In this document: one piece after another, positions 3,146 to 53,460 of the stretch | Numbering within the stretch: the first letter of the stretch is position 1 | Layout: every line of letters starts with the position of its first letter | From: a virus | Lineage: Duplodnaviria; Heunggongvirae; Uroviricota; Caudoviricetes | Reading direction: 5' to 3' (one strand) | Virus record (IMG/VR): IMGVR_UViG_3300029705_000040 | Coordinates: 38,209-102,208 of that record | Length of the DNA: 64,000 nt | Position numbers and translations under genes: made by a program | The notes under the pieces: generated by a model | Databases searched by the model: none | Seen by the model: the letters and a program-made list of their open reading frames with translations, nothing else | What the model was told of the DNA's origin: nothing

Positions 3146-3148
3146 GTT

Positions 3149-8332: not shown

Positions 8333-8397
8333 CAAAGGTATGTAGAGTGTACCTTAAGCACTCCGCTATGTGCGCTAACAGCGAAAGCGTACTAATT

Positions 8398-8474: not shown

Positions 8475-8480
8475 TATATT

Positions 8481-8768: not shown

Positions 8769-8775
8769 ATAATAT

Positions 8776-8849
8776 GTCCGAATAGCCAAGCGGTAAGGCA
8801 GGGGACTGCAACTCCCCGATCATCTGTTCGAATCAGATTTCGGACTCCA
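8776..8849 (+). tRNA. tRNA-Cys (GCA)
   Basis: Acceptor GTCCGAA/TTCGGAC-T-CCA, anticodon GGGGA-CTGCAAC-TCCCC. Confidence 0.85.
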
Positions 8850-8911
8850 AATAAAATATAAGGGAGGATTTCATAATGCAGCTATAAAAGATTAATTTTA
8901 GGAGAACCATT

Positions 8912-9274
8912 ATGAAACAACGTCACAAATATTTTAGAAACCAGCGTTACAGAAATAAAGCTGAGCAAAAAGCTCTTATGACAGGTTGGGGTTATGGAAG
9001 ATATTATTATTTCATAACTAAAGAACCAGATCCTGCTAATCTTAGAGAGTGGCCTTTTACGCCTGACATTAAAGCTAGAGGTAAGGATTACTATTGTTAT
9101 TATTGCAATAAACCTACTGTTCCATATACTATTATGCAGGGCCAACGTAGAAGGACTTTTCCCAAATATTATAGAAATTATTGTAATAGACGTCTTAGAA
9201 AAACTTTTAAAGATGAAATTTATAATAATTGCTTATATAAGAAGCTTACTGAATATTGGTGGACTATTGATTAA
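8912..9274 (+). CDS. Hypothetical basic protein, 120 aa
   Basis: ORF with AGGAG RBS. Confidence 0.6.
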   Translation: MKQRHKYFRNQRYRNKAEQKALMTGWGYGRYYYFITKEPDPANLREWPFTPDIKARGKDYYCYYCNKPTVPYTIMQGQRRRTFPKYYRNYCNRRLRKTFKDEIYNNCLYKKLTEYWWTID

Positions 9275-9280
9275 AAATAG

Positions 9281-9309
9281 TTGATTTTTACTTAGATTTA
9301 TATTATAAT
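9281..9309 (+). promoter_or_regulatory. sigma70-like promoter TTGATT-N17-TATAAT (copy 3)
   Basis: TTGATT 9281-9286, TATAAT 9304-9309. Confidence 0.55.
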
Positions 9310-9356
9310 ATATGTATAAAATATAGATATGATTGATATAATCATCTCTATAATAT

Positions 9357-9431
9357 GCAGGATTAGCGTAGCGGATACGCAACCGCCTTCTAAGCGGTTA
9401 CAGATAGGTTCGACTCCTATATCCTGTACCA
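9357..9431 (+). tRNA. tRNA-Arg (TCT)
   Basis: Acceptor GCAGGAT/ATCCTGT-A-CCA, D GCGT/ACGC, anticodon ACCGC-CTTCTAA-GCGGT. Confidence 0.85.
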
Positions 9432-9481
9432 CTTTTTATTCAAAACTTTCTAAATAGAAGGAAAATCTTATAGGAAAATAG

Positions 9482-9510
9482 TTGATTTATTATATAAGAA
9501 AATATATAAT
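9482..9510 (+). promoter_or_regulatory. sigma70-like promoter TTGATT-N17-TATAAT (copy 4)
   Basis: TTGATT 9482-9487, TATAAT 9505-9510. Confidence 0.55.
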
Positions 9511-9542
9511 AATAATATAAAATATCTGATGAGGTTAAAGTT

Positions 9543-9812
9543 ATGAATAAAGAACATAACTGGATGAAATTTACTCTCAAAACTATTTATAATGAAGAAA
9601 TTGTTGTTATGTATGATAGCAACAGATATCCTTCTGATAAAGAAGATGAATTAAGAAAAGCGATAGATTTGGCCGATGTCTATAGAAATTCTTATTATAA
9701 TGATAGTGGAGTTATTGTTATGGATAAGAAAACAGCTGATTTTTGGTTTGGTGTCGTAGAAGAAGTTAAATGTAAAGCATTAGAGAAATATAGAAATGAA
9801 AGTATTTCCTAA
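9543..9812 (+). CDS. Hypothetical protein, 89 aa
   Basis: ORF with GAGG RBS. Confidence 0.55.
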   Translation: MNKEHNWMKFTLKTIYNEEIVVMYDSNRYPSDKEDELRKAIDLADVYRNSYYNDSGVIVMDKKTADFWFGVVEEVKCKALEKYRNESIS

Positions 9813-10056
9813 CTATGATCTATTATATGATGGTTCTATATGGAACTTAAATGATATTATCTATATGAAAATTCTTTCTTGTAGTAAACCAGGATATAAG
9901 TTTGAATTAGAATTTAGAATAAAAGAATTAGATACTTTGCTTTACTTTAATCATGTAGATAATGAATGGGATTACAAAATAGTTCAATATGAATTCATTG
10001 ATTTCTTAGCTAAATTTGTTAATCATTTATGTAAAGATTTAATCAATTTGAAATAA
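9796..10056 (+). CDS. Hypothetical protein, 86 aa
   Basis: ORF overlapping the previous stop. Confidence 0.5.
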   Translation: MKVFPNYDLLYDGSIWNLNDIIYMKILSCSKPGYKFELEFRIKELDTLLYFNHVDNEWDYKIVQYEFIDFLAKFVNHLCKDLINLK

Positions 10057-10161
10057 GTAAGACTATTCACTTAAGTAGAGAGGAAAATCTCACTTAGAAA
10101 TATAGATTTTGATATTATCAGTAAAGGTAATACCAGATAGGTGAAAAGCCTATCAAAACAT

Positions 10162-10237
10162 GCGCCTGTAGCTCAGGTGGTAGAGCACGTGACTTTTAAT
10201 CACGGTGTCCCGAGTTCGAGCCTCGGCAGGCGCACCA
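10162..10237 (+). tRNA. tRNA-Lys (TTT)
   Basis: Acceptor GCGCCTG/CAGGCGC-A-CCA, D GCTC/GAGC, anticodon CGTGA-CTTTTAA-TCACG. Confidence 0.9.
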
Positions 10238-10255
10238 AAATCACAGAGGTGTGTT

Positions 10256-10441
10256 ATGAGTAAAATTATGGAAGAACTTAATAGAATTTCTTTATTAGAA
10301 TCTATGTGTAAAAATCCTGTTACTGTAGATGCTATTAATAACTCTTATAAAGAAGATGCTGATGATAGTTTCGGTATTTTCGATACACCTGAAGAAGCTT
10401 TTGCAGCTATGGAAGAGAGTTGGAAAAATGAAAAAAATTGA
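10256..10441 (+). CDS. Small acidic protein; candidate antitoxin of the downstream RelE/YafQ-like toxin
   Basis: 61-aa ORF starting after the tRNA (track ORF trimmed); overlaps the toxin start by 14 nt. Confidence 0.4.
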   Translation: MSKIMEELNRISLLESMCKNPVTVDAINNSYKEDADDSFGIFDTPEEAFAAMEESWKNEKN

Positions 10442-10727
10442 GCTTAAAAAGTAGTTTACCAAAGATTTTGAAAAGTTATCAAAAACTGGTAAAATCGATA
10501 AGAAAAGTTTTTCTAATATAATTAATGATATAGCTGCTGGAAAACCTCTTGATCAAAAATATAGAGATCACGCTTTAGCTAAGCACTCTCCAAAAGAACT
10601 ATAGGGCTGTAGAGACTTCCATTATAAAAGCAATATATGTGTTGTTTATAAAGTTTTAGATGATTTAATTCAGCTTATAAGGATTGGAAGTCATCAAGAT
10701 CTAGGATTAACTGAGGATTTAAGATGA
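10428..10727 (+). CDS. RelE/YafQ-family type II toxin, 99 codons including 2 in-frame TAG
   Basis: Verified frame ATG 10428 to TGA 10725. Only internal stops are TAG at 10452 and 10602. Motifs ...KDFEKLSK..., DHALAKH, CRDFH, VVYKV..LIRIGSHQDL match YafQ/RelE. The first TAG aligns with Q of E. coli YafQ SGQYSKDV. Confidence 0.6.
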
Positions 10728-11383
10728 CCGATTTAGAAATATTTATACAAAACAATCAAGAATTAATCGATCTAAATACTAAAGAAAGCTGGATAGAAAT
10801 TTATGATTTGTTTGAAAGCTCTTATTATGATGATTATCTAGCTGGAGAATTAAGCAAATTATTAATTGATATTAATGCAGATCCATGTCATATAATCGGT
10901 TTTGTTCCTAGAAGATTTTTAATGGGTCAAAGCGATTTAACTAAATATGAAATACCTAAAAATGCATCTTATATAGGAATGAGTGCTTTCGAAGATACAG
11001 CTTTAGAAGAAGTATATATACCAGAAAGTGTTAGAGAGCTAGATTTCTTATGTTTTTCAGGAACTAAATTAAAAAAAGTATTTATACCGGATACTGTGCA
11101 TAGAATAGCAAATGGGGTATTTCATTCTTGCTTAAATCTAGAAGAAGTATTGATTGGTAAAGTATCGGAATTGGGCGAAGATGTTTTTGCTAATTGTGAG
11201 AATTTAACAAAATTAATTATTTGCGATAGTGTATCTCAACTTGATTCTAGCATTGTTAAAGGTTGTAAATCACTAAAAGAAATCGATTTTTTAGGAACGA
11301 TCGAAACATTTGAAAAGATTCGAGTAGGTTATACAGAATCATCTATAAAAATAAAATGCATAGATGGTGAAATTTCTTGGTAA
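10724..11383 (+). CDS. BspA-type leucine-rich repeat (LRR_5-like) protein
   Basis: Repeats of the form IP.SV..I...F..C..L..V.I across 219 aa; ATGA overlap with the toxin stop. Confidence 0.65.
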   Translation: MTDLEIFIQNNQELIDLNTKESWIEIYDLFESSYYDDYLAGELSKLLIDINADPCHIIGFVPRRFLMGQSDLTKYEIPKNASYIGMSAFEDTALEEVYIPESVRELDFLCFSGTKLKKVFIPDTVHRIANGVFHSCLNLEEVLIGKVSELGEDVFANCENLTKLIICDSVSQLDSSIVKGCKSLKEIDFLGTIETFEKIRVGYTESSIKIKCIDGEISW

Positions 11384-11480
11384 AATAATTAAAAATTAAG
11401 AAATTAGTCCTGTATAAATAATTGTTAAAAGAAAAACATTTAATTTAAGAAATTTTTACGCTAAATTAAATGTTATAAAT

Positions 11481-11565
11481 GCTGGTGTTCCCGTAGTGGC
11501 CAACCGGAACGGATTTGTAATCCGTCGCGAAAGCTTCGTGAGTTCGAATCTCACCACCAGCTCCA
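11481..11565 (+). tRNA. tRNA with anticodon TGT (Thr ACA?) but an 85-nt type II-like architecture
   Basis: Acceptor GCTGGTG/CACCAGC-T-CCA, anticodon ACGGA-TTTGTAA-TCCGT, extra hairpin CGAA-AGC-TTCG in the variable region. Confidence 0.5.
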
Positions 11566-11645
11566 GACGTCGAAATCAAAAGTAGACAAACAGATACGTT
11601 ATCTCAGAAATAATCTGTATAAACTATAAGAGATAACATAAAAAT

Positions 11646-11719
11646 GCCTCGATGGCTCAGCGGTAGAGCAGTCGCCTAGTAAGCGACAGGTCGTCGGTTC
11701 AAATCCGACTCGAGGCTCC
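11646..11719 (+). tRNA. tRNA with anticodon AGT (A34; Thr ACN reader?)
   Basis: Acceptor GCCTCGA/TCGAGGC-T-CCA, D GCTC/GAGC, anticodon GTCGC-CTAGTAA-GCGAC. Confidence 0.6.
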
Positions 11720-11727
11720 ACAATATA

Positions 11728-11804
11728 TTGGGGATTCGCCAAGCGGTAAGGCACGGGATTTTGATTCCCGCATTTCGGGTGTTCGAATCACTCATCCCCA
11801 GCCA
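11728..11804 (+). tRNA. tRNA-Gln (TTG)
   Basis: Acceptor TGGGGAT/ATCCCCA-G-CCA (U1-A72 as in bacterial Gln), anticodon CGGGA-TTTTGAT-TCCCG. Confidence 0.8.
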
Positions 11805-12101
11805 CCAGTGTATATATTTTTCATGAAATAAGTCTTATATATACATATATGGATAGAGACTTTGTCGGAGATATTACAACGGGTATACCCATAAGGGTGA
11901 GAGCATAAGAGTTAAACCGGCTTATTGCGAACCAGTGAACTTACGGACACAGAACGGTAACTGTAGGGAACGTAGGTAGACAACGAGTTCACTCCCTAAA
12001 GAACTAATGACCGATGCTTAGTATAATTAGTAGTACTTTCCCTTTCCTGGGAGAAACATCAGTGCAATTCTGGTAGTATCGACTTAATTAAGGAAAAACA
12101 A

Positions 12102-12290
12102 ATGATTTCACTTATTCTATTATTTCTTGAACTGATATATTTATATGTATATTATATCGTAAAAAGTAAAAGTATAGAGAAGTCACTAATGTATATAGAT
12201 AATTATATTATAAATGGTAGAAAACTTCTCACTAATACTGGTTTAGAAATTATTAGAAGTAGAGTAAATTCTAAAAGAAGTAAATTTTAA
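12102..12290 (+). CDS. Small hydrophobic protein, 62 aa
   Basis: ORF with AGGAAAAA RBS. Confidence 0.4.
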   Translation: MISLILLFLELIYLYVYYIVKSKSIEKSLMYIDNYIINGRKLLTNTGLEIIRSRVNSKRSKF

Positions 12291-12300
12291 TGAGGTGTTT

Positions 12301-12669
12301 ATGTATTCGCATCTAAATGAGCAATTATTGCTAGAGATGGCTGAAATTGGTCGTATTGATGGATATAAGATACTAATTTATGGCAGTGAAGGACCTACAC
12401 AACATTTTCATGTAGAAAATAAAGAAAAGAAAATATCAAGTTGTGTAAAAATTTGTGAAGATGGTTATTTTAGTCATGGAACACATAAAGATACTTTAGA
12501 TAATAAATTAGTTAAAAAATTAAAAGAATTTCTTAATGCTCCTCATAAATTTTTTGGAAAACATGGTTATACTAATTGGCAAATAATTTGTATTTATTGG
12601 AATGATAATAACCCAGATTATTTAATTGATTTAGATACAGTTAAGATGCCTTTGTATAATAATTTATAA
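12301..12669 (+). CDS. Hypothetical protein, 122 aa
   Basis: ORF; GAGG at 12292-12295 precedes ATG 12301. Confidence 0.55.
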   Translation: MYSHLNEQLLLEMAEIGRIDGYKILIYGSEGPTQHFHVENKEKKISSCVKICEDGYFSHGTHKDTLDNKLVKKLKEFLNAPHKFFGKHGYTNWQIICIYWNDNNPDYLIDLDTVKMPLYNNL

Positions 12670-12747
12670 TTTTGAAATATTGCTCTGCTGGCTGTTTTTA
12701 GTATCAATTGATTCAGGACTAAAACTGCAACTGGAGCCTTATATTAT

Positions 12748-12822
12748 GGTGGGTTCGTATATCGGTTAGTACACAGCACTGTCACTGCTGAAGGACGGGT
12801 TCAACTCCCGTACCTACCGCCA
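12748..12822 (+). tRNA. tRNA-Asp (GTC)
   Basis: Acceptor GGTGGGT/ACCTACC-G-CCA, anticodon CAGCA-CTGTCAC-TGCTG. Confidence 0.8.
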
Positions 12823-13187
12823 TAAAACAACAGTAAGTCCAATACTTAGTAGGCTACGTAGTACTTTGATTGGCTAGTTGTTAAGTATTCGTAGTTCGTC
12901 GAAATAAAACAAACGAATTAACCGTAAGTAACGGCGAGCGAAAACGGTTAGCCAGTAGTAAGGACAATCTTGCGAAGGCACAACTGATACATATGACAGC
13001 TTCATATGTCGTAGCATAGAAAAAGTGCTCATGATGTTTTACGTAAAGTTACATCCACTGAATTCGCTCATCTAATGAGCAGCTAGTAACACTTACTTTT
13101 GATAACAGAGAACAAATAGATATTGAAACCCAGTGTTACAAATTACTTTATAAACAGCTATTGAAACTTACTTTTATCAAATTATTC

Positions 13188-13272
13188 TGCAGGGTAGCTC
13201 AGTAATCGTTAAAGAGCGCTAATCTTTGCTAAGATTAGAGGTCGTTGGTATGAAATCCATCCCCCGCCGCCA
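13188..13272 (+). other. Aberrant tRNA-Ala(TGC)-derived element with an 8-nt anticodon loop
   Basis: D-arm TAGCTCAG...GAGCG and variable AGGTC match E. coli tRNA-Ala. Anticodon stem CTAATC/GATTAG has loop TTTGCTAA (8 nt). T-loop TATGAAAT (8 nt). Acceptor TGCAGGG/CCCCGCC has 2 mismatches. G-CCA encoded. Confidence 0.4.
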
Positions 13273-13404
13273 TTTAACAGTTTCAAAATTCTGTATTAAG
13301 AATAGAGCTATTATTACTTACTTTTTGAAATGGTTATTATAGGTTCGATTCCTATACTGAGCCTTAGGCTTAGTTGTTAGTAATATAACTTATCTATTCT
13401 ATAT

Positions 13405-13481
13405 AGCTGGGTAGAGCAGTCAGGTAGCTCGCTAGGCTCATAACCTAGAGGTCCAGGGTTCGAATCCCTGCCAAGCAACCA
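13405..13481 (+). tRNA. tRNA-Met or Ile2 (CAT), with A1:A72 mismatch (initiator-like feature)
   Basis: D GAGC/GCTC, anticodon CTAGG-CTCATAA-CCTAG, T CAGGG-TTCGAAT-CCCTG, CCA. Confidence 0.65.
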
Positions 13482-13531
13482 CTCTGCGTTTTTGGCTAGT
13501 CTTCGCGAAGAAAAATAAACTAGCATAATAT

Positions 13532-13608
13532 TGGGGCGTAGCGCAGTTTGGTAGCGCGCCTGATTTGGGATCAGGAAGTCGTGGGTTCAAGTCCCGTCGC
13601 CCCAACCA
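13532..13608 (+). tRNA. tRNA-Pro (TGG)
   Basis: Acceptor TGGGGCG/CGCCCCA-A-CCA, D GCGC/GCGC, anticodon CCTGA-TTTGGGA-TCAGG (G37). Confidence 0.85.
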
Positions 13609-13856
13609 CACCAATTAACAATTATAAAACATATTTTGTACTTGTTAATTTGAGATGTACCTATAATAGGGTCGCTACTGTTGCAGCAGTAGGAAAACAA
13701 CATAAAGCGTAGTATTAAAAGAACGATTAATTAAAATAGATGCACACGGTAGCGCGCCAAAAGGCTCAGTTATAATGGTATTGAGAGACGTGGGTTTCAC
13801 TTGGAGAATCGGGAGGGTGAACGCTTTATTTTATATATTTTTAGTTGAATAATGAA

Positions 13857-13986
13857 GGTGCCACGAAGGATCTAATACCGTAACCAGTCGGTTCCTCATG
13901 TCCATATAACGCCTTTAAACTAAGGGGGTTGGAAACAGGGTTGGATTGTAAAAATAGCTGTGGTAAATGGAATGTGATGAACAGCC
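13857..13986 (+). repeat. Structured non-coding element, copy 1 (GGTGCCACGAAG...AGCTGTGGTAAATGGA..GATGAACAGCC)
   Basis: Shares its 5' 12-mer and a ~45-nt 3' block with 14296-14381. Confidence 0.5.
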
Positions 13987-14295
13987 TTTAATTATAAATA
14001 AAATAGCTGATGTACTAGTGTACAAACAGTTTCTCAGGTCGATTCGGAATCGGCTTGTGCATAAACAATTCTCTTAGGCTTACTATTGTTCGGAACTTTA
14101 GTAGCACACTTAAGAGCTTAGAGAAGTCATTGTTTGTAAGTGGAAAGATAATACGCACGTATTAAATCAAGACTCATTTTCAATAAAAGAAACTTACCAC
14201 ACCACTAACTTATTTTTAATTACCGCGGGAATCATTATTAAGTTGAGTGGAAATTTGAATTTAAGCATTTCAACAATTCAATAATCCCTATAGAC

Positions 14296-14381
14296 GGTGC
14301 CACGAAGCCGGCTGACAAGCCGAGGGGTCGCGTTGGATCTGTATAACAGCAGCTGTGGTAAATGGAGCGAAATGAACAGCC
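14296..14381 (+). repeat. Structured non-coding element, copy 2
   Basis: GGTGCCACGAAG...GTTGGATCTGTATAACAGCAGCTGTGGTAAATGGAGCGAAATGAACAGCC. Confidence 0.5.
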
Positions 14382-14716
14382 GTTAATATATTTTTTATAA
14401 GGGAGACTATTGAGATGTTTGGAATGGATCAATGGAATTTTCTTGCATATGCTTTATTAATTAATTATATGGAAGAAAATAAAAAGCTATTTGGAAGGAT
14501 TTGAGCAACTATCTTTCCAAAATATGGGCCGTTATATCATGTTAGCAGATTACCTGATTTGCACTCAGGAGGCGACCGGGGCAGCACCGGTACGGTCCAC
14601 CAGAACTAAATATAAGGTAGCAAAAGAAGTCATGAGCTTTTGAGATAACAATACTACTATTATTGAGCTTAAATTTAGTATATCGCAAATATTTTTCATA
14701 GTAGGAGAAATTATAA

Positions 14717-15643
14717 ATGCAAAGTTTTCAATGTATATGTGGAAAAATTTTTTCATCTAAACATGCTTTAAGCGGGCATCACAGTCATTGCGTAGAATAT
14801 TTAACTAATATTGGAAGATTACACATACGGCAATAGGTGGATGCTACAAATGGAGCTAAAAGTGGTGCTACACTAAAAGCAAAAAGCATAGAAAGAAAAG
14901 CGGCTAATATGCTAGCTTGGGTATAGCAGTAGAATACATGTGAAAAATGTGGTAAGATTATGCTTGAGAAATTTGGATCTGGTAGATTTTGCTCCAGAGC
15001 ATGTGCTAATAGTCATGTGAAACATGGAAAATATACAAACGAAAACGTAAAAAATAGAAAAACAAAGTCAAATAAAAAATCACACAATCAACTACTTAAA
15101 GAGTATATTTTAAGTCCACCGAAATGTTTGATTTGTGGTAAAACTCTTGCATATGAGAAACGTGCTAGAAAAACATGTTCAAAAAATTGTTGTAGTAAAT
15201 ACCTCTCGAAGTAGAAAAAAGATCTAGTTGAAAAAGTTGGCGGTAACTTAAATCAATATGGTACGCGAGGTCACGCTAGATATGGTACATATAAGGGGTT
15301 TCACTGCGATTCTTCTTATGAGCTCGCGTTCGTAATATATTGTCTAGATCATAATATTATATTTTAGAGAAACCATAAGGGATTTTCTTATAATTTTCAA
15401 AATAAAAATTATAAATATTATCCAGACTTTATTATAAATGATAAATACATAGAAATAAAAAATTACAAAAGCGATCGCGTTATTGCTAAGACTAATTAGT
15501 TTCCAATAGATAAGATTTTAGTAATTCTTTATTTATCTGATATAAAAATCTGTATAGATTATTGTATAAAGGTTTATGGTAAAAATTTTACTGAACTCTA
15601 TGATAAAGATAAACCATCATGGATGGATAAGAAAAATAGTTGA
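14717..15643 (+). CDS. PD-(D/E)XK/C2H2 freestanding nuclease, paralog 2; contains 6 in-frame TAG codons
   Basis: Verified frame ATG 14717 to TGA 15641. Only internal stops are TAG at 14834, 14924, 14930, 15212, 15365 and 15497. The C-terminus FHCDSSYELAFVIYCLDHNIIF*RN...YYPDFII...EIKNY...PSWMDK aligns with 1533-2306, and the TAG sits at the same column. Confidence 0.6.
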
Positions 15644-15681
15644 TGCAGATGCCGCGTGTTCGACTCACGTCAGCTCCACCA
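15640..15681 (+). other. tRNA 3'-half-like fragment overlapping the nuclease stop
   Basis: GCGTG-TTCGACT-CACGT + CAGCTCC-A-CCA; no matching 5' half found in the window. Confidence 0.3.
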
Positions 15682-15782
15682 TTAAATCGAATACAGGTAC
15701 TTGCGAGATGTTATACTGTTGTAAGCAGTGTTTAATAACAGTGTTAACAACAATATAACATTTTCCTGTATATTTAATAAAT

Positions 15783-15858
15783 GTGGGTGTAACTCAATTG
15801 GTAGAGTGCTAGCTTGCCAAGCTGGATGTTGCGGGTTCGAACCCCGTCACTCACTCCA
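15783..15858 (+). tRNA. tRNA-Gly (GCC)
   Basis: Acceptor GTGGGTG/CACTCAC-T-CCA, D ACTC/GAGT, anticodon CTAGC-TTGCCAA-GCTGG. Confidence 0.8.
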
Positions 15859-15983
15859 GGCCATATGTGCAAATGATTAGAAATAACCAGTGATGGCTCC
15901 AGAGATGTTTTATGGTTGAACTCATATAATAAAAACCATTATCGCCTTTATAAGTAATGCACATTGCGAAAATGAGGCTACTG

Positions 15984-16059
15984 CGAGAGTTATATCAATT
16001 GGGAGATAAGCTGCCTTACAAGCAGAAGGTTACAGGTTCAAGTCCTGTACTCTCGACCA
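15984..16059 (+). tRNA. tRNA-Val (TAC)
   Basis: Acceptor CGAGAGT/ACTCTCG-A-CCA, D TATC/GATA, anticodon loop CTTACAA. Confidence 0.8.
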
Positions 16060-16410
16060 TTAGGAAAACTACAACGGGATAGGAGACCCCCGCTACAGAG
16101 ATAACCAATGCATTCGTTGAAAAATACGTGTCATCTAGAGTTGAGTTGGTGAGTGGGAGGGCACAGAGCTAAACGATAATATGTTAAAGTAAACTGTTGA
16201 TACTTATTATTTTATGCTCCGAGACAGTGTGGTCGCAAGACGTGACATCTTAAGTGCAGAGGTATGTGGATGTTGTAGCAGATTAGGGTTTAGATGCATC
16301 CGAGAATTGGGTTTGCCCTAATCAAGTATGGGGTTGCTGGTGTAACGTTAGCACGACAGATTGTGGCTCTGTAAGACTAAGTTAGATTCTTAGGCTTCCC
16401 ACCATTAAAT

Positions 16411-16497
<87 letters not shown>

Positions 16498-16597
16498 AGA
16501 TTGTTTAGTTTCTGTGTTATACTTTTTATCAAACTTATACATAATATATATGTAGAAGATAATTCTTCTAAAATATTTTAAGTGAGGTATAAGAAAC

Positions 16598-16969
16598 ATG
16601 GACAACAAAAAAGAAACTCAAACTCAAGAAACATCATTTAGAGGAATTCCCATTCCTGAAATTGAAAAGAAGCATGATTATAAAGTAGCTGATTCTCAGA
16701 AAGTTATCGATAAGATAATGGCTATGTCTCCAGAAGAACAGAAAACAGTTACTCTTGAAAGCATCCATTACGAAGATAAAGAAATTAGCGAAGTAAAGCT
16801 CTCTACTGGTGATATTATTCCTGTAGAAGCTGCTATTGCACTTGCTGAAAGTAAATTATTAAATGGATTTAGAGCTGGTAGAAATGCTAGAGGCGACCGC
16901 ACTTTAAGAGCTACCCCTAATTATGCTGGTAAGGAAAAGAATTCTATCCACAAATTACCTGTATTCTGA
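16598..16969 (+). CDS. Hypothetical protein, 123 aa
   Basis: ORF with GAGG RBS; TGA stop. Confidence 0.65.
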   Translation: MDNKKETQTQETSFRGIPIPEIEKKHDYKVADSQKVIDKIMAMSPEEQKTVTLESIHYEDKEISEVKLSTGDIIPVEAAIALAESKLLNGFRAGRNARGDRTLRATPNYAGKEKNSIHKLPVF

Positions 16970-17012
16970 GATGAAAGGCTAGAGGAATATAATTTCTCTA
17001 GTTTACATATAA

Positions 17013-17089
17013 GCCTTCGTGGCTCAACTGGTTAGAGCGACCGGTTCATACCCGGTAGATTGGGAGTTCAAGTCTCTCCGAAGGCACCA
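17013..17089 (+). tRNA. tRNA-Met (CAT), elongator-like
   Basis: Acceptor GCCTTCG/CGAAGGC-A-CCA, anticodon ACCGG-TTCATAC-CCGGT. Confidence 0.8.
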
Positions 17090-17165
17090 GCAGGTATAGT
17101 GTAACGGATTAGCACATCAGACTACGGATCTGATAATATGGGTTCGAATCCTATTACCTGTACCA
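17090..17165 (+). tRNA. Second tRNA-Arg-like (ACG; loop CTACGGA)
   Basis: Acceptor GCAGGTA/TACCTGT-A-CCA, anticodon TCAGA-CTACGGA-TCTGA; directly abuts the previous tRNA. Confidence 0.6.
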
Positions 17166-22883: not shown

Positions 22884-23222
22884 ATGATTGAAAGAGAATT
22901 ATTCGAAGATATAGATGATGGTGAGTTAAAATCTACAGAAGAAATCTCTATGATACTTTTGGGGGAAGAGCTTTTTAACGAAGATAGTTCTGATGATGGT
23001 ATTTTATCAGATAGTAATGATCTTTATGTGGCTTCTCAAATAGTCATACAGGCAGGTTTAGCTATCTCTACCTATGATTTCAATACATATAAAGATTCTA
23101 TTTTACAATTATTAAATGGAATTTCAGAAGCTCATAATTCTGGTCAAGAAGCAGCTGTAGATATGCTGTTAAAAATAACAAAGCAATTTGTAGCTGGAGG
23201 TATCCAATGTCAAAACTTATAA
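22884..23222 (+). CDS. Hypothetical acidic protein
   Basis: AGAGGT RBS. Confidence 0.5.
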   Translation: MIERELFEDIDDGELKSTEEISMILLGEELFNEDSSDDGILSDSNDLYVASQIVIQAGLAISTYDFNTYKDSILQLLNGISEAHNSGQEAAVDMLLKITKQFVAGGIQCQNL

Positions 23223-24214
23223 TTATGGTAGGTTTACCTGGTAGTGGTAAATCGTATGCAGCACATGTATTAAATAAAGAAAATGATTATGAGATTCTAT
23301 CCAGTGATACTTTTAGAAAAAGAATGTTTGGGGATGAAAATGATCAAGCACATAATGAGCAAGTATTTGCAGAAATGCATAAATGGTTAAGAGCTTATCT
23401 TACATATGGTAGAGATGTTATCTATGACGCTACAAATACGACAGTAAAAGCTAGAAAACATATTTTCAGTCAAATACAGGGAATCCCAGAATTAGAAGTA
23501 GAAGCTATTGTAATGAACACACCTATAGAAGAATGTATATTAAGGGATTCTTTTAGAGAAAGACATGCTGGTAGCAGCGCTATTTATAAGTTTTATTTAA
23601 GTTTTCAATTTCCACAAAAATTCGAAGGCTTTGATAGAATAAAAATTTGGGGTTATAACTGTATTCCTGAGTTTAATTTAGATTTTTACAGATCTGTTAA
23701 AAATTTAATGCTAGAAACTGATCAGAAAAATCCTCATCATATATATTCTTTAGGTCAACATTGTCAATTAGTAGCTGATAATTATGAAACACGCACTATA
23801 GAAAATATGGCTGCTACTTTCCATGATGTTGGTAAGCTTTTCACTCAGAAAATTGATGATCAAGGGATTGCTCATTATTATAGTCATGATAGTATTGGTA
23901 CATATTATCTCATAAGTCATTTACCTCTTATAGCTTACTCAGGAACTACCTGGGATGATATTTTCGAAATTCTTTTTTATGTAAACTGGCACATGAAAGC
24001 ACACAAAGAATTGCGTACAGAAAAAGCTGAAAGGAAATACAGGAAACTTTTTGGCGATGAAAGGTATGAAAAGCTTCTTAAATTTGCTGATAATGATATT
24101 ATTGCAAGTGGTACAGAATCTATCCATGATGAGCTTACTAAATGGATTAAAGAAGATAAACTCACTTTAGATGAGATCCGCAACAAAAGAAAGTTTAAAA
24201 AATTATTAAAATAA
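23207..24214 (+). CDS. P-loop (poly)nucleotide kinase fused to an HD-domain phosphohydrolase; candidate RNA-repair end-healing enzyme
   Basis: Walker A GLPGSGKS near the N-terminus; HD motifs HHIYSLGQH ... FHDVGK. Confidence 0.7.
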   Translation: MSKLIIMVGLPGSGKSYAAHVLNKENDYEILSSDTFRKRMFGDENDQAHNEQVFAEMHKWLRAYLTYGRDVIYDATNTTVKARKHIFSQIQGIPELEVEAIVMNTPIEECILRDSFRERHAGSSAIYKFYLSFQFPQKFEGFDRIKIWGYNCIPEFNLDFYRSVKNLMLETDQKNPHHIYSLGQHCQLVADNYETRTIENMAATFHDVGKLFTQKIDDQGIAHYYSHDSIGTYYLISHLPLIAYSGTTWDDIFEILFYVNWHMKAHKELRTEKAERKYRKLFGDERYEKLLKFADNDIIASGTESIHDELTKWIKEDKLTLDEIRNKRKFKKLLK

Positions 24215-26572: not shown

Positions 26573-27424
26573 ATGATTTTTATTTATAAACTAATGTTTC
26601 CGAATAATAAAGTTTATATAGGGTAGACAAATAATTTAGATATACGTTGGATAAATGGTGGTAAGGGGTATAAAAGGTGTCCATACGTTTGGAATGCTAT
26701 ACAAAAATACAGCTGGACTGCTATAGAAAAAAGTATTCTAGAAGTCTGCAATGACAGGGATGAAGCTAATACTAAAGAAGTTTACTGGATAGCAGCATAC
26801 AATTCAGCTGATTATAGATTCGGTTATAATATCTAGTCAGGTGGAAAGTATAGAGAACGTAGTCCAGAAGCGAATGCACGAATTAAAGAGAAGAATTCTA
26901 ACAAAATTGTAAGCGAGGAAACTCGTAAAAAGATATCAAAAGCTAATAAAGGTAAAATAAGATCAGCTGAGTATAGAGAAGCTCAATCAAACAGATTGAA
27001 AGCTTACTATCGAATGCATGAGTCAAAATCTAAAGGTAAACCTGGTCATAAGACAAAGGGTTGCTTAGGCTAGCATTGGTATAATAATGGAAAGATATCA
27101 ATTCTATGTTTTGAAGACCAAATTCCAGATGGATATGTAAAAGGAAGAATTAATGTTAAATCAGGCTATAAAATGTCTGAAGACATTAAGCAAAAATATT
27201 CTTAGAGCCATAAAGGTAAGCACATAGGAAAAAACAATAGCAATGCGAAAGCTGTTGTTAAATTAGATTTAAGTTATAATTTTATAGAAAAATATGATAC
27301 TATAAAAGAAGCTTCTGAAGCAAATAATAATATTAGCGGGATTGGGGCCTGTGCACATTACAGACAGAAATCAAGCGGAGGGTTTATTTGGAGATTTTAT
27401 GATGAATGGAAAGATACAAAATAA
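26573..27424 (+). CDS. GIY-YIG homing endonuclease with NUMOD3-like repeats; 4 in-frame TAG codons
   Basis: Verified frame. IYKLMFPNNKVYIG*TNNLDIRW, GYNI*SGG, SEETRKKISKANKGK, GCLG*HWYNNG, KYS*SHKGK; TAG at 26624, 26834, 27071, 27203; TAA 27422. Confidence 0.7.
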
Positions 27425-28304
27425 AGATTATAGTCATATAAAAAAATGGTTTGCTGTTAGTGATGTCCACTCATATTACACCGAATTGATTAAAGCCTTA
27501 GATGAAAAAGGTTTTGATATATCAGATAAATCAATGGGATTAATCTTATGTGGCGATGCCTTCGATCGCGGTGATGACACAGTTAAAGTATTCGAGTTCT
27601 TAAAAGACTTAAAAGCAAAAGATAGATTAGTATACATAATTGGAAATCACGAAGATCTTTTGTTTGATTGCATAACAGAAATGTCATATGGACACACACC
27701 TGGTTCGCATCATTTTCATAATGGTACAGTAAAAACTATATGCATGCTTTGTGGGGAGAATGAGTGGATTGTATATCGTCCAACTAATGATATTATGGAT
27801 ATGGTATATAATAAAACAGATGAGGTAAGGTCTTTTATCAGAGAGAATTGTGTAAATTATTTCACATTAGGAAATAAGATTTTTGTACATAGTTGGATAC
27901 CCTGTGTTTCTGATGACCCTAATATGTATCACAGCAGAAAAACTTATTCTAAAATCAATGATATTTGGGATAAAAATACTGATAATATGACTATTAAAGA
28001 GCTTACTGATTATAGGGATGCTTGGGAAGCTGCTCGCTGGGGTAATCCTTTTACTCAGTGGAAGCAAGGTTTTTATCCAGAAGGAAAATGCATAGTTTGT
28101 GGTCATTGGCACTGCTCATGGGGTCATAGCCATATAGATATGAAAACACCAGAATGGCCACAGAAAAATCAAGTTAAAAAATTTGAAGAAGCATTTAAGC
28201 CATACATAAAAGATAATATTATCGGTATTGATGCATGTGTTGCTTATTCTGGAAAAATAAATTGTGTTGTTTTTGATGAAAGTGGAAATGTAATAGAGGC
28301 TTAA
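27399..28304 (+). CDS. Ser/Thr protein phosphatase (calcineurin-like metallophosphoesterase)
   Basis: SDVHSYY, GDAFDRGDD, GNHE motifs. Confidence 0.75.
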   Translation: MMNGKIQNKDYSHIKKWFAVSDVHSYYTELIKALDEKGFDISDKSMGLILCGDAFDRGDDTVKVFEFLKDLKAKDRLVYIIGNHEDLLFDCITEMSYGHTPGSHHFHNGTVKTICMLCGENEWIVYRPTNDIMDMVYNKTDEVRSFIRENCVNYFTLGNKIFVHSWIPCVSDDPNMYHSRKTYSKINDIWDKNTDNMTIKELTDYRDAWEAARWGNPFTQWKQGFYPEGKCIVCGHWHCSWGHSHIDMKTPEWPQKNQVKKFEEAFKPYIKDNIIGIDACVAYSGKINCVVFDESGNVIEA

Positions 28305-46210: not shown

Positions 46211-46230
46211 AATTTGGAGGTACATAATAT

Positions 46231-47460
46231 ATGTTAAATGCAAGAGGTGTGCGTGAGCTCGCATATGTTGTGCAAGTAGATTCTGTAGAATCTATGGTTG
46301 GCTATGATAGTCTTGAAATAGCTACAGTAAACGGTTGGAAATGTGTAGTCGGAAAGGGATCTATGAAAGCTGGTGACCTAGCTATATATTTCGAAATTGA
46401 TTCTAAGCTTCCTGATGTTGAACCCTTTAATCTTAATTCTGCTTTAGTAAAATATAAGTTCAAGATTAAGACTCAACGTTTTGGTAGAGGTGGTATTCCT
46501 TATATCTCTCAAGGTTTGCTTATGTCTCTAACCGAATTTGGTGATAAGTTAAAGAATATTAAACTAGGCGATTTCCTAACTGAAAAACTTAATATTACAT
46601 ATTACGAAGTAGAAGATAATACTAGAAAAGCTAATAAAGATAAGTATACTTCCATGAGGGACCGTCATAAGAAGTTTTTCAAGACGAAGTTTGGTAGATG
46701 GCTCATGCGCCATGAGTTTACTAGAAAGATTTGTTTCCTATTCTTAGGTAAGAAGAAGGATAAGAAGACGGATTGGCCTAACTGGGTAGTTAAAACTGAT
46801 GAGGAAAGATGTCAGAACTGCTTTAATCAGATGAAGGCACTCAATAAGAAGTGGTTAACTACTGAAAAGATCGATGGTTCTTCTGCTACATATACGATGA
46901 AAAATACTAGAAATAAGAAAAATCGTGAGATGCTTGTCTGCTCTAGAAATGTTGTTTTCAACGCACCAGAAAAAGAAGCTAGAAATTTCTATAAAGATAC
47001 TGATGGTAACATTTGGCTAGAAATGGCTGCGAAGTATGATATGAAAACTGTTTTAGAAACTATTTTAGATAACGATCCTAATCTAGAATTTGTAACAATA
47101 CAGGGCGAAGTTTATGGCGGAAAGATTCAGAAGAGAAATTATGGTCCTGAGCATAGACTTGCTATTTTCAATGTCATACTTAAGCAAAATGGAAAAGCTC
47201 CAGTTCGTATGAATCCTGTTGAAATGGAAAATTACATTTTTGATCTCAATAGTAAGTATGAATTTAATCTAACAACAGTTCCTGTGTTAGAATCTGGGTT
47301 TGAACTTCCTGAAACTGTTGAGGAACTTTTGGAAATAGCTACTGGAAATTCTGTTATAGATGGTGGTCCTAGAGAGGGTATTGTTTTACGTACAGAAGAT
47401 GGTGTAAACAGTTTCAAAGCTGTTTCGAACCAATTCTTGTTAGATTTCCATAACAACTAA
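46231..47460 (+). CDS. ATP-dependent RNA ligase-like nucleotidyltransferase with an N-terminal OB/tRNA-binding-like domain
   Basis: Nucleotidyltransferase motif I, KIDGSS; N-terminal AYVVQVDSVESMVGYDSLEIATVNGWKCVVGKG resembles tRNA-binding OB folds. Confidence 0.65.
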   Translation: MLNARGVRELAYVVQVDSVESMVGYDSLEIATVNGWKCVVGKGSMKAGDLAIYFEIDSKLPDVEPFNLNSALVKYKFKIKTQRFGRGGIPYISQGLLMSLTEFGDKLKNIKLGDFLTEKLNITYYEVEDNTRKANKDKYTSMRDRHKKFFKTKFGRWLMRHEFTRKICFLFLGKKKDKKTDWPNWVVKTDEERCQNCFNQMKALNKKWLTTEKIDGSSATYTMKNTRNKKNREMLVCSRNVVFNAPEKEARNFYKDTDGNIWLEMAAKYDMKTVLETILDNDPNLEFVTIQGEVYGGKIQKRNYGPEHRLAIFNVILKQNGKAPVRMNPVEMENYIFDLNSKYEFNLTTVPVLESGFELPETVEELLEIATGNSVIDGGPREGIVLRTEDGVNSFKAVSNQFLLDFHNN

Positions 47461-50128: not shown

Positions 50129-50395
50129 ATGACGAAAATTAACAAAAAGAAACTAGCTTTTGAAATACTTTATATTATATTTAATAGCCTCACATTCTTT
50201 TTTATTGGCGGCGGTATCGGTAGTTTGATCATAACAGCTTGTACAGGTGATCCAATGACTACATATGCATATATATGCTGTTATGGAGCGTTTCCTGCTA
50301 CATGTTTTAGAGCCATTTTTCAACGGTTAGATAAGAATCAAGAACGGTACATAGAAGATAGGGAGGAAAATTTAAATGAAAACAGTAAGGAATAA
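50129..50395 (+). CDS. Small membrane protein
   Basis: Hydrophobic. Confidence 0.4.
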   Translation: MTKINKKKLAFEILYIIFNSLTFFFIGGGIGSLIITACTGDPMTTYAYICCYGAFPATCFRAIFQRLDKNQERYIEDREENLNENSKE

Positions 50396-50621
50396 TACAT
50401 TTGAAACTAACTCATCATCCACACATTCTTTCGCTATCAGAAGGGGAAGTGATAACTGGGAGGAACTACATAAAATATTTGATACTATCTTATATGGCGA
50501 CTCATTACATAATATTGATGGTGTTGATGATATTTATGACGAAGAAGGCTTGCTTAAATTACTTAAATTATTAAACGAAGCACAAACAATTCTTATAGAA
50601 GGAACGGAGGATTGGGATTAA
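50376..50621 (+). CDS. Paralog family member B (MKTVRNNTFETNSSSTHS)
   Basis: Conserved N-terminal motif. Confidence 0.55.
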   Translation: MKTVRNNTFETNSSSTHSFAIRRGSDNWEELHKIFDTILYGDSLHNIDGVDDIYDEEGLLKLLKLLNEAQTILIEGTEDWD

Positions 50622-50622
50622 A

Positions 50623-51141
50623 ATGATTACCATTAGAAAAAATACTTTTGAAACAAATAGCAGCAGCACTCATAGCATTGTGATTCCTAAGAATGTTGAT
50701 AATAAAAAAGATTTTACTAAATCTATACACTTTGGATTAGGTGAATTTGGTTGGAGTAGAGATGTTGCTGATCCAGCTGATTACTTATATACGGCTATTT
50801 GTGATGCTTATTTAGATAGTTATTATACTGCTGAACATCAAGAAAAAGGAAAAGTATACTTACAAAAAATAAAAGATATTCTCGAGAAAAATGGTATCAC
50901 ATATGAATTCGAAGAGGTAAAAAATGGGCCTTATAATTATTTTTATGTAGATCACTGCAGTGAGTTAGATACTTTTATAGAAAGGGTCTGTAATGATGAG
51001 GACCTTCTCTTGAGATATCTTAAGTATGGTACAGTTTATACTGGTAACGATAATGATGATTATGATGAAAGCTATCACTACTTCGATGCTTACCATGAAC
51101 TAGATCCAGAAAATTATGATTACTTCTATAAATCTAATTAA
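50623..51141 (+). CDS. Paralog family member C (MITIRKNTFETNSSSTHS)
   Basis: Conserved N-terminal motif; acidic Tyr-rich C-terminus. Confidence 0.6.
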   Translation: MITIRKNTFETNSSSTHSIVIPKNVDNKKDFTKSIHFGLGEFGWSRDVADPADYLYTAICDAYLDSYYTAEHQEKGKVYLQKIKDILEKNGITYEFEEVKNGPYNYFYVDHCSELDTFIERVCNDEDLLLRYLKYGTVYTGNDNDDYDESYHYFDAYHELDPENYDYFYKSN

Positions 51142-51186
51142 ATATTTCAAAAACCTCTGTATATAATTATATATGGAGGTTATTTT

Positions 51187-51558
51187 ATGTTTACTATTAG
51201 AAATAGTACATTTGAAACAAACTCAAGTTCAACGCACAGTATAGTAATTGGTACAGAAAAGCAGTTCGAAGATTGGCGAGCAGGTACGCTTTTATATAAA
51301 CATTACGCATGGTCATCTGATAAACTCGAAAAGGGTTTTTATACATTAGAAGAATTGAAGCAATATCTAATAGATGATGGCGAGTATACAAAAGTAGATA
51401 TCGAAGCTATGGATCAAGATGAGCTTTTAGATATTCTGAGAGAAGATGATATTGTTGACTATGATAACTGGTATGAGAATCTTGAGCATGATACTCATAC
51501 ATACACAACAGCTAGCGGTGAAAAGATTGTCATCGAATGTGCTTATGGTTACGATTGA
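51187..51558 (+). CDS. Paralog family member D (MFTIRNSTFETNSSSTHS)
   Basis: Conserved N-terminal motif. Confidence 0.55.
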   Translation: MFTIRNSTFETNSSSTHSIVIGTEKQFEDWRAGTLLYKHYAWSSDKLEKGFYTLEELKQYLIDDGEYTKVDIEAMDQDELLDILREDDIVDYDNWYENLEHDTHTYTTASGEKIVIECAYGYD

Positions 51559-51573
51559 TATGGAGGAATAACT

Positions 51574-51936
51574 ATGATAAGTATCAGAAGAAATACTTTT
51601 GAAACTAACTCTTCTTCTACTCATTCTTTATCTGTTGTTAACAAAGAAGATTGGGAAAAATTTAAAGCTGGCGAGCTTTATTTCGCATCAGATAATTATG
51701 ATTTAATCAGTAAGGAAGATGTCATTGAACTAGATGCTTTCGAAGATAGCTATCCAGAATTTAAAGATCAGCCAGAAGATGTTAAAAAATATTTAATTGA
51801 AAAATTTATAAAAGATAATTGCGACGGAGAATACGCACCTATATACTCTTACAGATATCTTGATCCACCTTTCAAAATTGTTTATGATAAAAATGGAAAT
51901 GAGATGGTAGCTTTTTCATTCTATTTTTATGGCTAA
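51574..51936 (+). CDS. Paralog family member E (MISIRRNTFETNSSSTHS)
   Basis: Conserved N-terminal motif. Confidence 0.55.
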   Translation: MISIRRNTFETNSSSTHSLSVVNKEDWEKFKAGELYFASDNYDLISKEDVIELDAFEDSYPEFKDQPEDVKKYLIEKFIKDNCDGEYAPIYSYRYLDPPFKIVYDKNGNEMVAFSFYFYG

Positions 51937-52046
51937 ATTAAAAGAACATAGACGCTTTAATATAGTATAATCAGCTCTAAATGCGCGCAAGAGTTTATTA
52001 TTCTGTATAATAAAGCAAATACAAAAATTTAAGGAGAATAAAAATC

Positions 52047-53344
52047 ATGGCAGGTAATAATTCTATACAACTTCTGCGTGGTAGTTCAACTGCTAGAAAA
52101 GCTAGCACTGAAAAATTGCTCTCCGGTCAACCTTTCTACGAAACAGATACAAATTTGTTTTATGTAGGGGGGGGGGCAACTTAAGCTCTGCTACACCTAT
52201 TAAGGTTAGCACTCTCACAATCTAGAGAAATGGTACAACTGTTGGTACCTTTAATGGTTAGACAGCTCAAACTATTAATATCTAGGATACTGATACTAAC
52301 ACAGACTTAAAAACAGCATCAGGAAATACTTCAAGCAAAATCTACTTAATTGGTGCTACTAGCCAATCTAGTTCTGGTCAAACAACATACTCTCATGATA
52401 CAGCATATGTTGGAACAGATGGTTGTTTATACAGTAATAGTAGTAAGGTTGCTGTAAGAACAGAAGTACCATATATTTTAAAAGATAACTCTTATTTAGT
52501 TATTTATAAAAACGATTCTTCTACATTAGAGTCAAATTGTATATATACAAATTATCCATCATACACAATAACTTTTAATGCGAATGGTGGCAGCTGTTCA
52601 ACAACATCGAGTAAGACATTTAGAGGAAAATTATCTAGCTTACCTACACCCACTATGAGTGGTGGTACATTCTTAGGTTGGGGCACGTCATCTTCTGCAA
52701 CTAGCTATGTAAGCTCTAGCAAAGTTTATAGCTCTAACACAACACTTTATGCTATTTGGAAAATTGATAGTACATCAAGTGGATCAGGTAACGATTATGA
52801 AGGTACTTATCAGTTAATAGATGATGAAAGTCCACAAAACGTGTTAGCTACTGATGATTATGTTATCATAGCCGGCACCACATCATCTGACAGTATGTTA
52901 TATTTTATGGGTAATGATTTTTCTGGTAATTATCCATATAACTATTCTTTAGATCCTTCTGACCAACTAACTTTAGATGGCTCTAGCAGTATAGCTATAT
53001 TTAAAGTTACTTATAACGATGGTTAGATAGCTTTACAACTTGCAAATGGTGAGTATTCAGGACAATATTTAGCAAATACTTCGAATAAATATTTAAAACT
53101 TCAATCAGATGAATGTTTTTGGGATATCTCAGAACATGGGTCTCCAGCGTACGGCGGTTTGCAAGTTGGTTCTAATAGAACCAAGCTCATATGTCAGGAC
53201 ACAGGCAACCTTATAGTAGTTCCTACTAGTATGCAAGCTAATAGCAACAACAGCTATAGTACAACATTCTCGTGTTATACTAATCCAAGTAGTAGTTATC
53301 TTGATACGACTCAAATATTCAGGCTGATCACAGATTCTAACTAA
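52047..53344 (+). CDS. Tail-fibre-like receptor-binding protein with Listeria-Bacteroides repeat domain. Reading frame interrupted twice near the 5' end and carrying 4 in-frame TAG codons
   Basis: N-terminus MAGNNSIQLLRGSSTARKASTEKLLSGQPFYETDTNLFYVGGG (typical tail-fibre N-terminal motif) in frame 0 up to the G9 tract 52167-52175. Body from 52184 to TAA 53342 lies in frame +2 (…KVSTLTI*RNGTTVGTFNG*TAQTINI*DTDTNT…ITFNANGGSCSTTSSKTFRGKLSSLPTPTMSGGTFLGWGTSSSATSYVSSSKVYSSNTTLYAIW…) with no ATG before 52655. TAG at 52223, 52259, 52283 and 53024. Removing one G from the G9 tract and one T from 52198-52201 would restore a single frame. Confidence 0.55.
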
Positions 53345-53360
53345 CCATAAGAAAATAAAA

Positions 53361-53397
53361 AAGATCTCAAGATTTATTTCTTGAGATCTTTTCTTTT
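53361..53397 (+). terminator. Rho-independent terminator
   Basis: AAGATCTCAAGA-tttattt-CTTGAGATCTT followed by TTCTTTT. Confidence 0.7.
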
Positions 53398-53399
53398 AG

Positions 53400-53428
53400 T
53401 TGATTTTATCCTCAAAATATTATATAAT
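53400..53428 (+). promoter_or_regulatory. sigma70-like promoter TTGATT-N17-TATAAT (copy 13)
   Basis: TTGATT 53400-53405, TATAAT 53423-53428. Confidence 0.55.
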
Positions 53429-53460
53429 ATAAATATAAAAGAAGAGGTAAAAAAAAAATT

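Follow-up and report, generated by a model that had tools for sequence, protein, structure and literature searches.

A poly-G tract in a TAG-recoded tail-fibre-like gene of an undescribed large phage is a candidate phase-variation element

Receptor-binding protein (RBP) genes of Campylobacter Fletchervirus phages carry tracts of G7–11 (Sorensen et al. 2021, Cell Rep 35:109214, as cited in bioRxiv 10.1101/2025.10.21.683753), and homopolymeric simple sequence repeats (SSRs) have been described as contingency loci in T2/T4 and other phages; in coliphage tail-fibre genes, SSRs of at least 6 nucleotides (nt) are under-represented (bioRxiv 10.1101/2025.10.21.683753). In Bifidobacterium breve, G10/G11 tracts divide the genes for sortase-dependent pili, with OFF as the reference state (PMC9187656). 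Gut phages are also known that recode the TAG stop codon, mostly in structural and lysis genes, and suppressor tRNAs are detected in only about 40% of such genomes (bioRxiv 10.1101/2021.08.26.457843). Here we describe a tail-fibre-like gene in a 64-kb, AT-rich stretch (about 32% GC; hereafter the window) of the Caudoviricetes record IMGVR_UViG_3300029705_000040. The locus (52047–53344, + strand) occupies two reading frames, with an N-terminal open reading frame (ORF) in frame 0 and a long body in the frame with position mod 3 = 2, and a poly-G tract lies at the junction. Recoded TAG and poly-G tracts in RBP genes of phages are each known already. New here are their combination in one gene of an undescribed large phage group and the recurrence of the tract at the domain junction of one fibre family, tandem paralogues included. 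With moderate confidence, we read the tract as a slippage-prone contingency element that would confer DNA-level phase variation on an accessory fibre.

As far as the Fletchervirus system is described in the citing preprint, the likeness lies in an intragenic G tract within a fibre or RBP gene of an AT-rich phage (7–11 residues there, 9–13 here), in the setting of the reading frame by tract length and in the proposed outcome of phenotypically mixed progeny. The window phage is, however, unrelated to Fletchervirus: it has no DNA or protein match among GenBank phages, its contigs reach up to 262 kb and it is TAG-recoded. Its tract marks the point where a conserved N-terminal domain gives way to interchangeable distal bodies, and within-population switching and an effect on host range are what we infer for it. 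With the T2/T4 contingency loci it would share reversible homopolymer frameshifts caused by polymerase slippage, leading to heterogeneity of the phage population. In contrast to the scarcity of SSRs in coliphage fibre genes, the only long G tract in the 64 kb lies in the fibre gene and is conserved across lineages. The split of the B. breve pilus genes into two ORFs, the second without a start of its own, is similar, as is the full-length surface-adhesion protein made by the in-frame minority; that locus, however, is chromosomal and bacterial, and its switching has been demonstrated experimentally (PMC9187656). The code 15 gut phages (among them Lak, crAss-like, Garnet and Amethyst; bioRxiv 10.1101/2021.08.26.457843; PMC9523058) resemble the window phage in low GC, in not ending genes with TAG, in having in-frame TAG in a structural gene while most other genes lack it, and in a large tRNA array. 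They differ in that, for the window phage, no tRNA(CUA) turned up in the roughly 70 kb examined and in that its in-frame TAGs are also concentrated in homing-endonuclease genes. Mtd of Bordetella phage BPP-1 probably belongs to the same N-terminal domain family (contiguous members match PF18454), and in both cases the distal part of the fibre is diversified. A diversity-generating retroelement acts on the C-terminal domain in BPP-1, whereas the homopolymer is the variable element here, and the window protein itself falls below the Pfam Mtd_N threshold; no gene resembling such a retroelement was noticed near the fibre, in an analysis that included no search aimed at one.

The N-terminal ORF encodes 45 amino acids (aa; MAGNNSIQLLRGSSTARKASTEKLLSGQPFYETDTNLFYVGGGAT), with the C-terminal end ...GQPFYETDTNLFYVGGGAT, and it stops at TAA 52182–52184 because the tract is G10. 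Addition of one G (G11) or removal of two (G8) fuses these 45 codons to the body. The gene rebuilt in this way encodes 431 aa with G8, 432 aa with G11 and 433 aa with G14, whereas G9, G10, G12 or G13 give products of only 45–52 aa. The predicted junction peptide of the G8 and G11 joins is ...LFYVGGGGNLSSATPIK or the GGG version. The initial annotation had placed the N-terminal domain in frame 0 (the ATG ORF 52047–52184) and a long body with a Listeria–Bacteroides repeat in another frame, and both assignments hold (Pfam Flg_new, E 1.1e-13, aa 173–236). It had, however, counted nine G residues (52167–52175), where there are ten (52167–52176), and had called for a second indel in an ATTT at 52198–52201, where the sequence is TATT. 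No second indel is needed, as the body frame leaves the tract directly (GGG GGG GGC AAC TTA AGC ...).

The body frame was said to lack an ATG before 52655, and in fact neither ATG, GTG nor TTG occurs in it from 52112 to 52654. Since there is one Shine-Dalgarno (SD)-like sequence and ATG at the start, one terminator at the end and no early start in the body frame, 52047–53344 is a single transcription and translation unit whose halves lie in different frames. The AAGGAG motif recurs with equal spacing at the two loci of a sister lineage (L027 and L028), and three terminator-like sites were found against 0.3 expected. The G10 tract is the only run of G or C longer than 5 in the 64-kb window (0.004 expected by chance), and GGG is the rarest glycine (Gly) codon in the window ORFs (6.5% of Gly codons). 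Under the standard code, the gene calls in every public assembly examined consist of a 45-aa stub and a 123-aa fragment.

The initial annotation overlooked four in-frame TAG codons in the body. These are the only stops in its frame: 389 codons contain no TAA and no TGA, while the other two frames contain 12 and 36 TAA/TGA, and none of 20,000 shuffles of the body stretch was open. Of the + strand ATG ORFs of at least 70 aa in the window, TAA terminates 59, TGA 27 and TAG only 2, the fibre gene and one homing-endonuclease-like gene, which both clearly read through. Because TAG ends no credible gene in the window, sits inside three homing-endonuclease genes and, at one fibre position, is CAG in the sister lineage, we conclude with high confidence that TAG is a sense codon in this phage (code-15-like). 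If TAG were not a sense codon, the fibre body would be unreadable at any tract length.

TAG is probably read as glutamine (Gln), an assignment that is supported, not proven. The TAG at 52223 lies inside a conserved LTI-[KQ]-x-x-GTT-x-GTF motif and aligns with K, S, T or Q of the homologues. A GIY-YIG homing-endonuclease gene (26573–27424), which has clear homologues in GenBank phages, contains four in-frame TAGs; one aligns with Q of the closest homologue, and another, at YIG-x-T, aligns with Q in 2/5 homologues. Other TAG positions align with K, S, T or N, and the sites with a Gln correspondence are too few for statistics. With TAG read as Gln, the predicted peptides include VSTLTIQR and NGTTVGTFNGQTAQTINIQDTDTNTDLK. 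Two paralogous HNH-like endonuclease genes (1533–2306 and 14717–15643; six each) and a RelE/YafQ-like toxin gene (10329–10727; two) contain in-frame TAGs as well. As a side observation, in-frame TAG in the window is concentrated in genes of selfish-element type, and most other genes have none. An annotated homing-endonuclease gene of crAssphage cr4_1 (L040, NC_055893.1 93112–93963) likewise has seven in-frame stops under code 11, making that phage another recoded one with recoded stops in such a gene.

Comparison with orthologous fibres, which the initial annotation had proposed, showed that four diverged lineages share poly-G at this codon junction, with lengths that differ between assemblies; all lengths given here were read from assemblies, not from reads, and may contain sequencing errors. 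In the sister lineage, whose body is 85% identical to that of the window at the aa level, L027 has G11 and is in frame (MAGNNAIQIL...LFYVGGGGKLNATSPIKVKTLTIqRNG...), and L028 has G10 and is out of frame like the window. A further lineage (lineage B) has an N-terminal domain 80% identical to that of the window and an entirely different distal body of 141 aa. Its tract is G13 in L023 and L024 and G12 in L029–L031, both out of frame; G11 or G14 would be in frame. Between L023 (G13) and L030/L029 (G12), the tract is the only difference over 5,287 nt. In the AT-rich fourth lineage (L043, Logan SRR33036528), two tandem fibre genes (635–2420 and 2501–4439) share the N-terminal domain, carry in-frame TAG in both bodies and have tracts at the same junction (G9 at 758 and G10 at 2620), both out of frame. 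Relatives without the tract encode V-G-D-G at this point (GTT GGT GAT GGA in L025). Over about 150 kb of related loci, runs of at least eight G or C were found only at fibre genes.

At least 18 contigs, the longest of 262 kb, encode the exact 45-aa product, which requires G10; they come from JGI, ENA and Logan assemblies produced by different pipelines. The locus or its counterpart in the relatives occurs in the runs SRR7031497, SRR7031455, ERR10663695, ERR10663696, SRR28204462, SRR27728192, DRR855141 and SRR33036528, in the JGI samples 3300018475, 3300018493, 3300018878, 3300024269, 3300024270 and 3300024303, and in ENA ERZ27248446. The contigs of the window lineage are at least 99.93% identical to the window and therefore represent one clone rather than independent observations. 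Within this clone, 7/8 loci have G10, and a short contig whose sequence begins 22 nt 5′ of the tract has G9. Contigs end at or next to the tract in several assemblies, an indirect hint of length heterogeneity within the population.

Two further observations concern the relatives. In L025 (3001–4361), which has no G tract, an 83-aa ORF with the N-terminal domain stops and a 364-aa ORF in another frame follows 15 nt later; this arrangement is not caused by a homopolymer and could be a separate gene pair or another recoding event. A second poly-G (G10–G12) lies about 65 nt 5′ of the ATG of another fibre paralogue (L023 2930, L029 3601, L031 1571 and L032 1066), inside a short leader ORF (MKLFKFYGGGG...). 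In one of its three frames (G10 or G13), the leader stays open as far as a TAA overlapping or adjoining the fibre ATG, and before reaching it crosses an AACCTCC/GGAGGTT pairing, a candidate SD mask. The leader could provide phase-variable translational coupling, but in the relatives shuffled sequence folds at least as well as its anti-SD hairpin.

Between the window and the sister lineage, the ratio of nonsynonymous to synonymous differences (pN/pS) of the body in its shifted frame is 0.13–0.15 at a pS of 0.62–0.70; that of the N-terminal domain is 0.20–0.23. To judge from these ratios, the body is under purifying selection and has been translated in the shifted frame over evolutionary time. 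The retention of three to four consecutive codons of the rarest Gly type, with synonymous sites near saturation, implies that the G tract itself is selected.

By its sequence, the rebuilt protein is predicted to have four parts: an Mtd_N-like domain of about 40 aa, a shared fibre module, a Flg_new repeat and a C-terminal domain of unknown fold, the last 190 aa giving no match in a PDB sequence search or against Pfam, even at relaxed thresholds. Most of the 546 database homologues of the reconstruction match only aa 85–138, with up to 88% identity, and many of the proteins matching there carry Phage_fiber_2, Peptidase_S74, PTR or BppU_N domains. A profile of the N-terminal domain, built from the window protein and its orthologues, retrieved 725 representative proteins, nearly all of them 200–850 aa in length and matched at residues 1–47. 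Contiguous members of this family match Pfam Mtd_N (PF18454) and the PHROG tail-fibre, tail-spike and minor-tail families; P0166 matches Mtd_N at residues 7–45 (31.5 bits against a cut-off of 26.3), and P0128 scores 59.9 bits, its best stretch being an internal second copy at residues 143–174. The window protein itself stays below the Mtd_N threshold, relaxed thresholds included. The family consensus at the junction is L-Y-[VI]-G-D-G, and the window lineage has poly-Gly in place of G-D-G. Tail-fibre identity thus appears supported at the level of the family. Three family fragments (P0206, P0167 and P0182) end a few residues past a GGG(G) stretch, which suggests possible further poly-G frameshifts in the family, some away from the G-D-G junction.

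Table 1. Features of the fibre locus and their coordinates in the window
Feature	Coordinates	Strand	Remarks
Shine-Dalgarno-like AAGGAG	52031..52036	+	10 nt 5′ of fibre ATG; read directly
N-terminal ORF, 45 aa, frame 0, Mtd_N-like domain	52047..52184	+	ATG to TAA 52182–52184
G10 homopolymer, junction of N-terminal domain and body	52167..52176	+	in-frame lengths G8, G11, G14
Fibre body, 388 sense codons and TAA stop 53342–53344	52178..53344	+	frame position mod 3 = 2
In-frame TAG, aa 60, in LTI-q-RNGTTVGTF	52223..52225	+	TAG kept in L027 and L028
In-frame TAG, aa 72	52259..52261	+	CAG (Gln) in sister-lineage L027 and L028
In-frame TAG, aa 80	52283..52285	+	TAG kept in L027 and L028
Conserved fibre module, aa 85–138, TNTDLKTASGNTSSKIYLIGATSQSSSGQTTYSHDTAYVGTDGCLYSNSSKV	52298..52459	+	homologue matches
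Flg_new (Listeria–Bacteroides repeat), aa 173–236	52562..52753	+	Pfam PF09479, E 1.1e-13, 51.5 bits
In-frame TAG, aa 327	53024..53026	+	inside C-terminal domain of unknown fold
Intrinsic-terminator-like hairpin, 14-bp stem, then T-run	53359..53400 (hairpin 53359–53392)	+	directly 3′ of fibre stop

We propose that the region would be one gene for a tail-fibre-like protein of 431–432 aa in which TAG is a sense codon, most likely for Gln. The G10 of the window would be an ‘OFF’ allele, translation ending after 45 codons, and a gain of one G or a loss of two would turn it ‘ON’. Slipped-strand mispairing during replication of the phage DNA would continually give rise to ON and OFF sub-populations, and slippage of RNA polymerase over the tract might contribute as well. 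The fibre, carried by only part of the progeny, would act as a bet-hedging device in host recognition, and a second condition may apply in that the body could be completed only once TAG suppression is active in the infected cell. This scheme supposes that tract length changes frequently within a population, that the fibre protein binds a receptor and that the ON and OFF states alter host range. Its support comes from the combination of a homopolymer kept by selection at one position, differing tract lengths in genomes that are otherwise almost identical, alleles both in and out of frame and purifying selection on the body, which together form the pattern of a contingency locus. The initial annotation had suggested poly-G contingency of the fibre; the conserved junction tract, its varying length, one in-frame allele and the purifying selection favour this idea.

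Several points weigh against this interpretation. Six of the seven distinct alleles are out of frame, a count that is compatible with drift (P about 0.26 under the expectation of two-thirds). In the window clone, the G tract does not look unusually unstable at the consensus level and is less variable than an A-run at 53449–53458, between the SD (GAGG) and the ATG (53461) of the gene 3′ of the fibre terminator. For this run, the window shares A10 with L001, L003 and L007, whereas L002, L004, L006, L008, L009 and L019 have A11, and gene callers accordingly report a product of 85 aa or 112 aa. The tract heterogeneity proposed within a population is extrapolated from assemblies, and annotated G-tract lengths can be wrong (PMC9187656). 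Neither the 28 tRNAs in the window nor the 10 in a stretch reaching 6.3 kb upstream include a tRNA(CUA); this search covered about 70 kb, the genome being 262 kb or longer. The fibre protein itself has no PHROG, PDB or GenBank phage match (GenBank phages were compared by DNA and by tblastn), and its receptor-binding role is predicted from domain content only.

The main alternative places the slippage in RNA. The genome would be stably out of frame and full-length fibre would be made at a low, roughly constant level, either by stuttering of RNA polymerase on G10–13 or by a ribosomal −1 slip on G GGG GGG, and the length of the DNA tract would be free to drift. The preponderance of out-of-frame alleles across four lineages despite strong purifying selection on the body would fit this, as would the stability of G10 in the window clone; the heptamer G GGG GGG has the form of an X XXY YYZ slippery site, and three consecutive rare GGG codons could pause ribosomes. 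The sequence 3′ of the tract, however, forms no significant stimulatory structure (z −0.37) and has nothing conserved between lineages. A fixed ribosomal frameshift cannot serve relatives that need a shift of −1, +1 or 0, and one allele (L027) is in frame. Transcriptional slippage is best documented on A/T runs, which also counts against the RNA-level explanation. In a comparable G-tract system, moreover, expression has been attributed to replication slippage (PMC9187656). Taken together, we regard slippage in RNA as unlikely. A classical programmed −1 ribosomal frameshift was considered separately and is unlikely, the heptamer being present, with no stimulatory structure and with a frame relation that is not conserved in orthologues. 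A stronger variant, in which the poly-G would be an obligatory RNA-level recoding site, the genome being out of frame on purpose, full-length fibre arising solely by slippage of the polymerase or the ribosome, and frameshift and TAG suppression being stacked to set dosage and timing, seems to us quite improbable. The G tract could also be a recombination junction for the exchange of distal fibre modules behind a constant N-terminal anchor; in the relatives, the same tract with its flanks is found in the short leader ORF 5′ of the second fibre paralogue as well.

The remaining two explanations deny that the frameshift is functional. In one, raised already in the initial annotation, the true tract is in frame (G11) and the shift is a sequencing or assembly error. 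Illumina chemistry copes poorly with long G runs, and published lengths can be in error (PMC9187656). The contig ends at or near the tract, the otherwise identical 5.3-kb contigs that differ only there and the single in-frame contig of the sister lineage would also be expected from miscalls. Yet the G10-dependent 45-aa product recurs on the 18 or more contigs from three sources and different pipelines, and no single systematic miscount puts all alleles in frame: with a +1 correction, the window, L028 and the G13 alleles would come into frame, but L027 would lose its frame, and neither the G12 alleles nor the two L043 genes would be mended. Error would also not explain why a run of rare codons is conserved at the junction in four lineages. 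A miscall is thereby weakened and, in our estimate, distinctly unlikely. The other explanation is a decaying pseudogene inactivated by a frameshift and nonsense mutations; read with the standard code, the region has one frameshift and a total of four stops. Every one of these stops is TAG, however, in an otherwise open frame of 389 codons at 32% GC that no shuffle reproduced, and TAG terminates no gene in the window. Two of the TAGs are conserved and a third is CAG in a lineage at a pS of about 0.65, and both the SD sequence and the terminator have been kept. The low pN/pS of the body implies translation in that frame and so rules out decay, which we consider extremely improbable. Phase variation by slippage in the DNA is thus the reading that we retain.

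All window genes are on the + strand, and among them are genes for an RNA ligase, a PNK-like kinase, a metallophosphatase, FolD, NAPRTase, an SPFH protein and several homing endonucleases. The clade is not assignable because the window contains no terminase or capsid gene. The fibre is unmatched and the other window genes are at most 31% identical to genes of GenBank phages, so the window phage is, by these comparisons, one that appears to be without a described relative. In IMG/VR, a search for relatives, a degenerate junction pattern, an alignment of the N-terminal domain and a back-translated MAGNNSIQ pattern gave nothing or chance matches. Two DNA-pattern scans around the tract in the JGI metagenome_contigs gave no match, that collection not including the JGI contigs that bear the locus.

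A very large tRNA array (window 463–17165 and L033 1–10000) comprises 28 genes in the window and five further upstream; L033 shows 10 tRNA genes, five of them inside the window. The array is interspersed with homing-endonuclease genes, and enzymes of tRNA-repair type lie nearby (RNA ligase, 46228–47460; PNK-like kinase, 23138–24214; metallophosphatase, 27306–28304). Just 5′ of the tRNA-Tyr gene is a 110-nt tRNA-like element (6355–6464, +) that scores 35.1 bits against the Rfam tRNA model and has no ARAGORN call. It has an acceptor stem, a T arm and a second, internal T-arm-like hairpin (CCGG-TTCGACT-CCGG), without a canonical anticodon arm. In lineage B, a Thg1-like gene adjoins the fibre. Directly 5′ of the fibre gene in the window are four tandem paralogous ORFs (50376–51936, +; 81, 172, 123 and 120 aa), all of which begin M..(I)R.NTFETNSSSTHS and have no Pfam family on record. 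As a gene of structural type, the fibre gene stands alone in an accessory region, a setting that fits an auxiliary rather than an essential fibre.

If the proposed mechanism is correct, homopolymer phase variation of host-recognition proteins would extend from the Campylobacter Fletchervirus phages to uncultivated large phages with a recoded stop codon. Annotation pipelines that ignore recoding and homopolymer frameshifts will miss such fibres. The locus also provides a testable case for distinguishing slippage at the level of DNA from slippage at the level of RNA.

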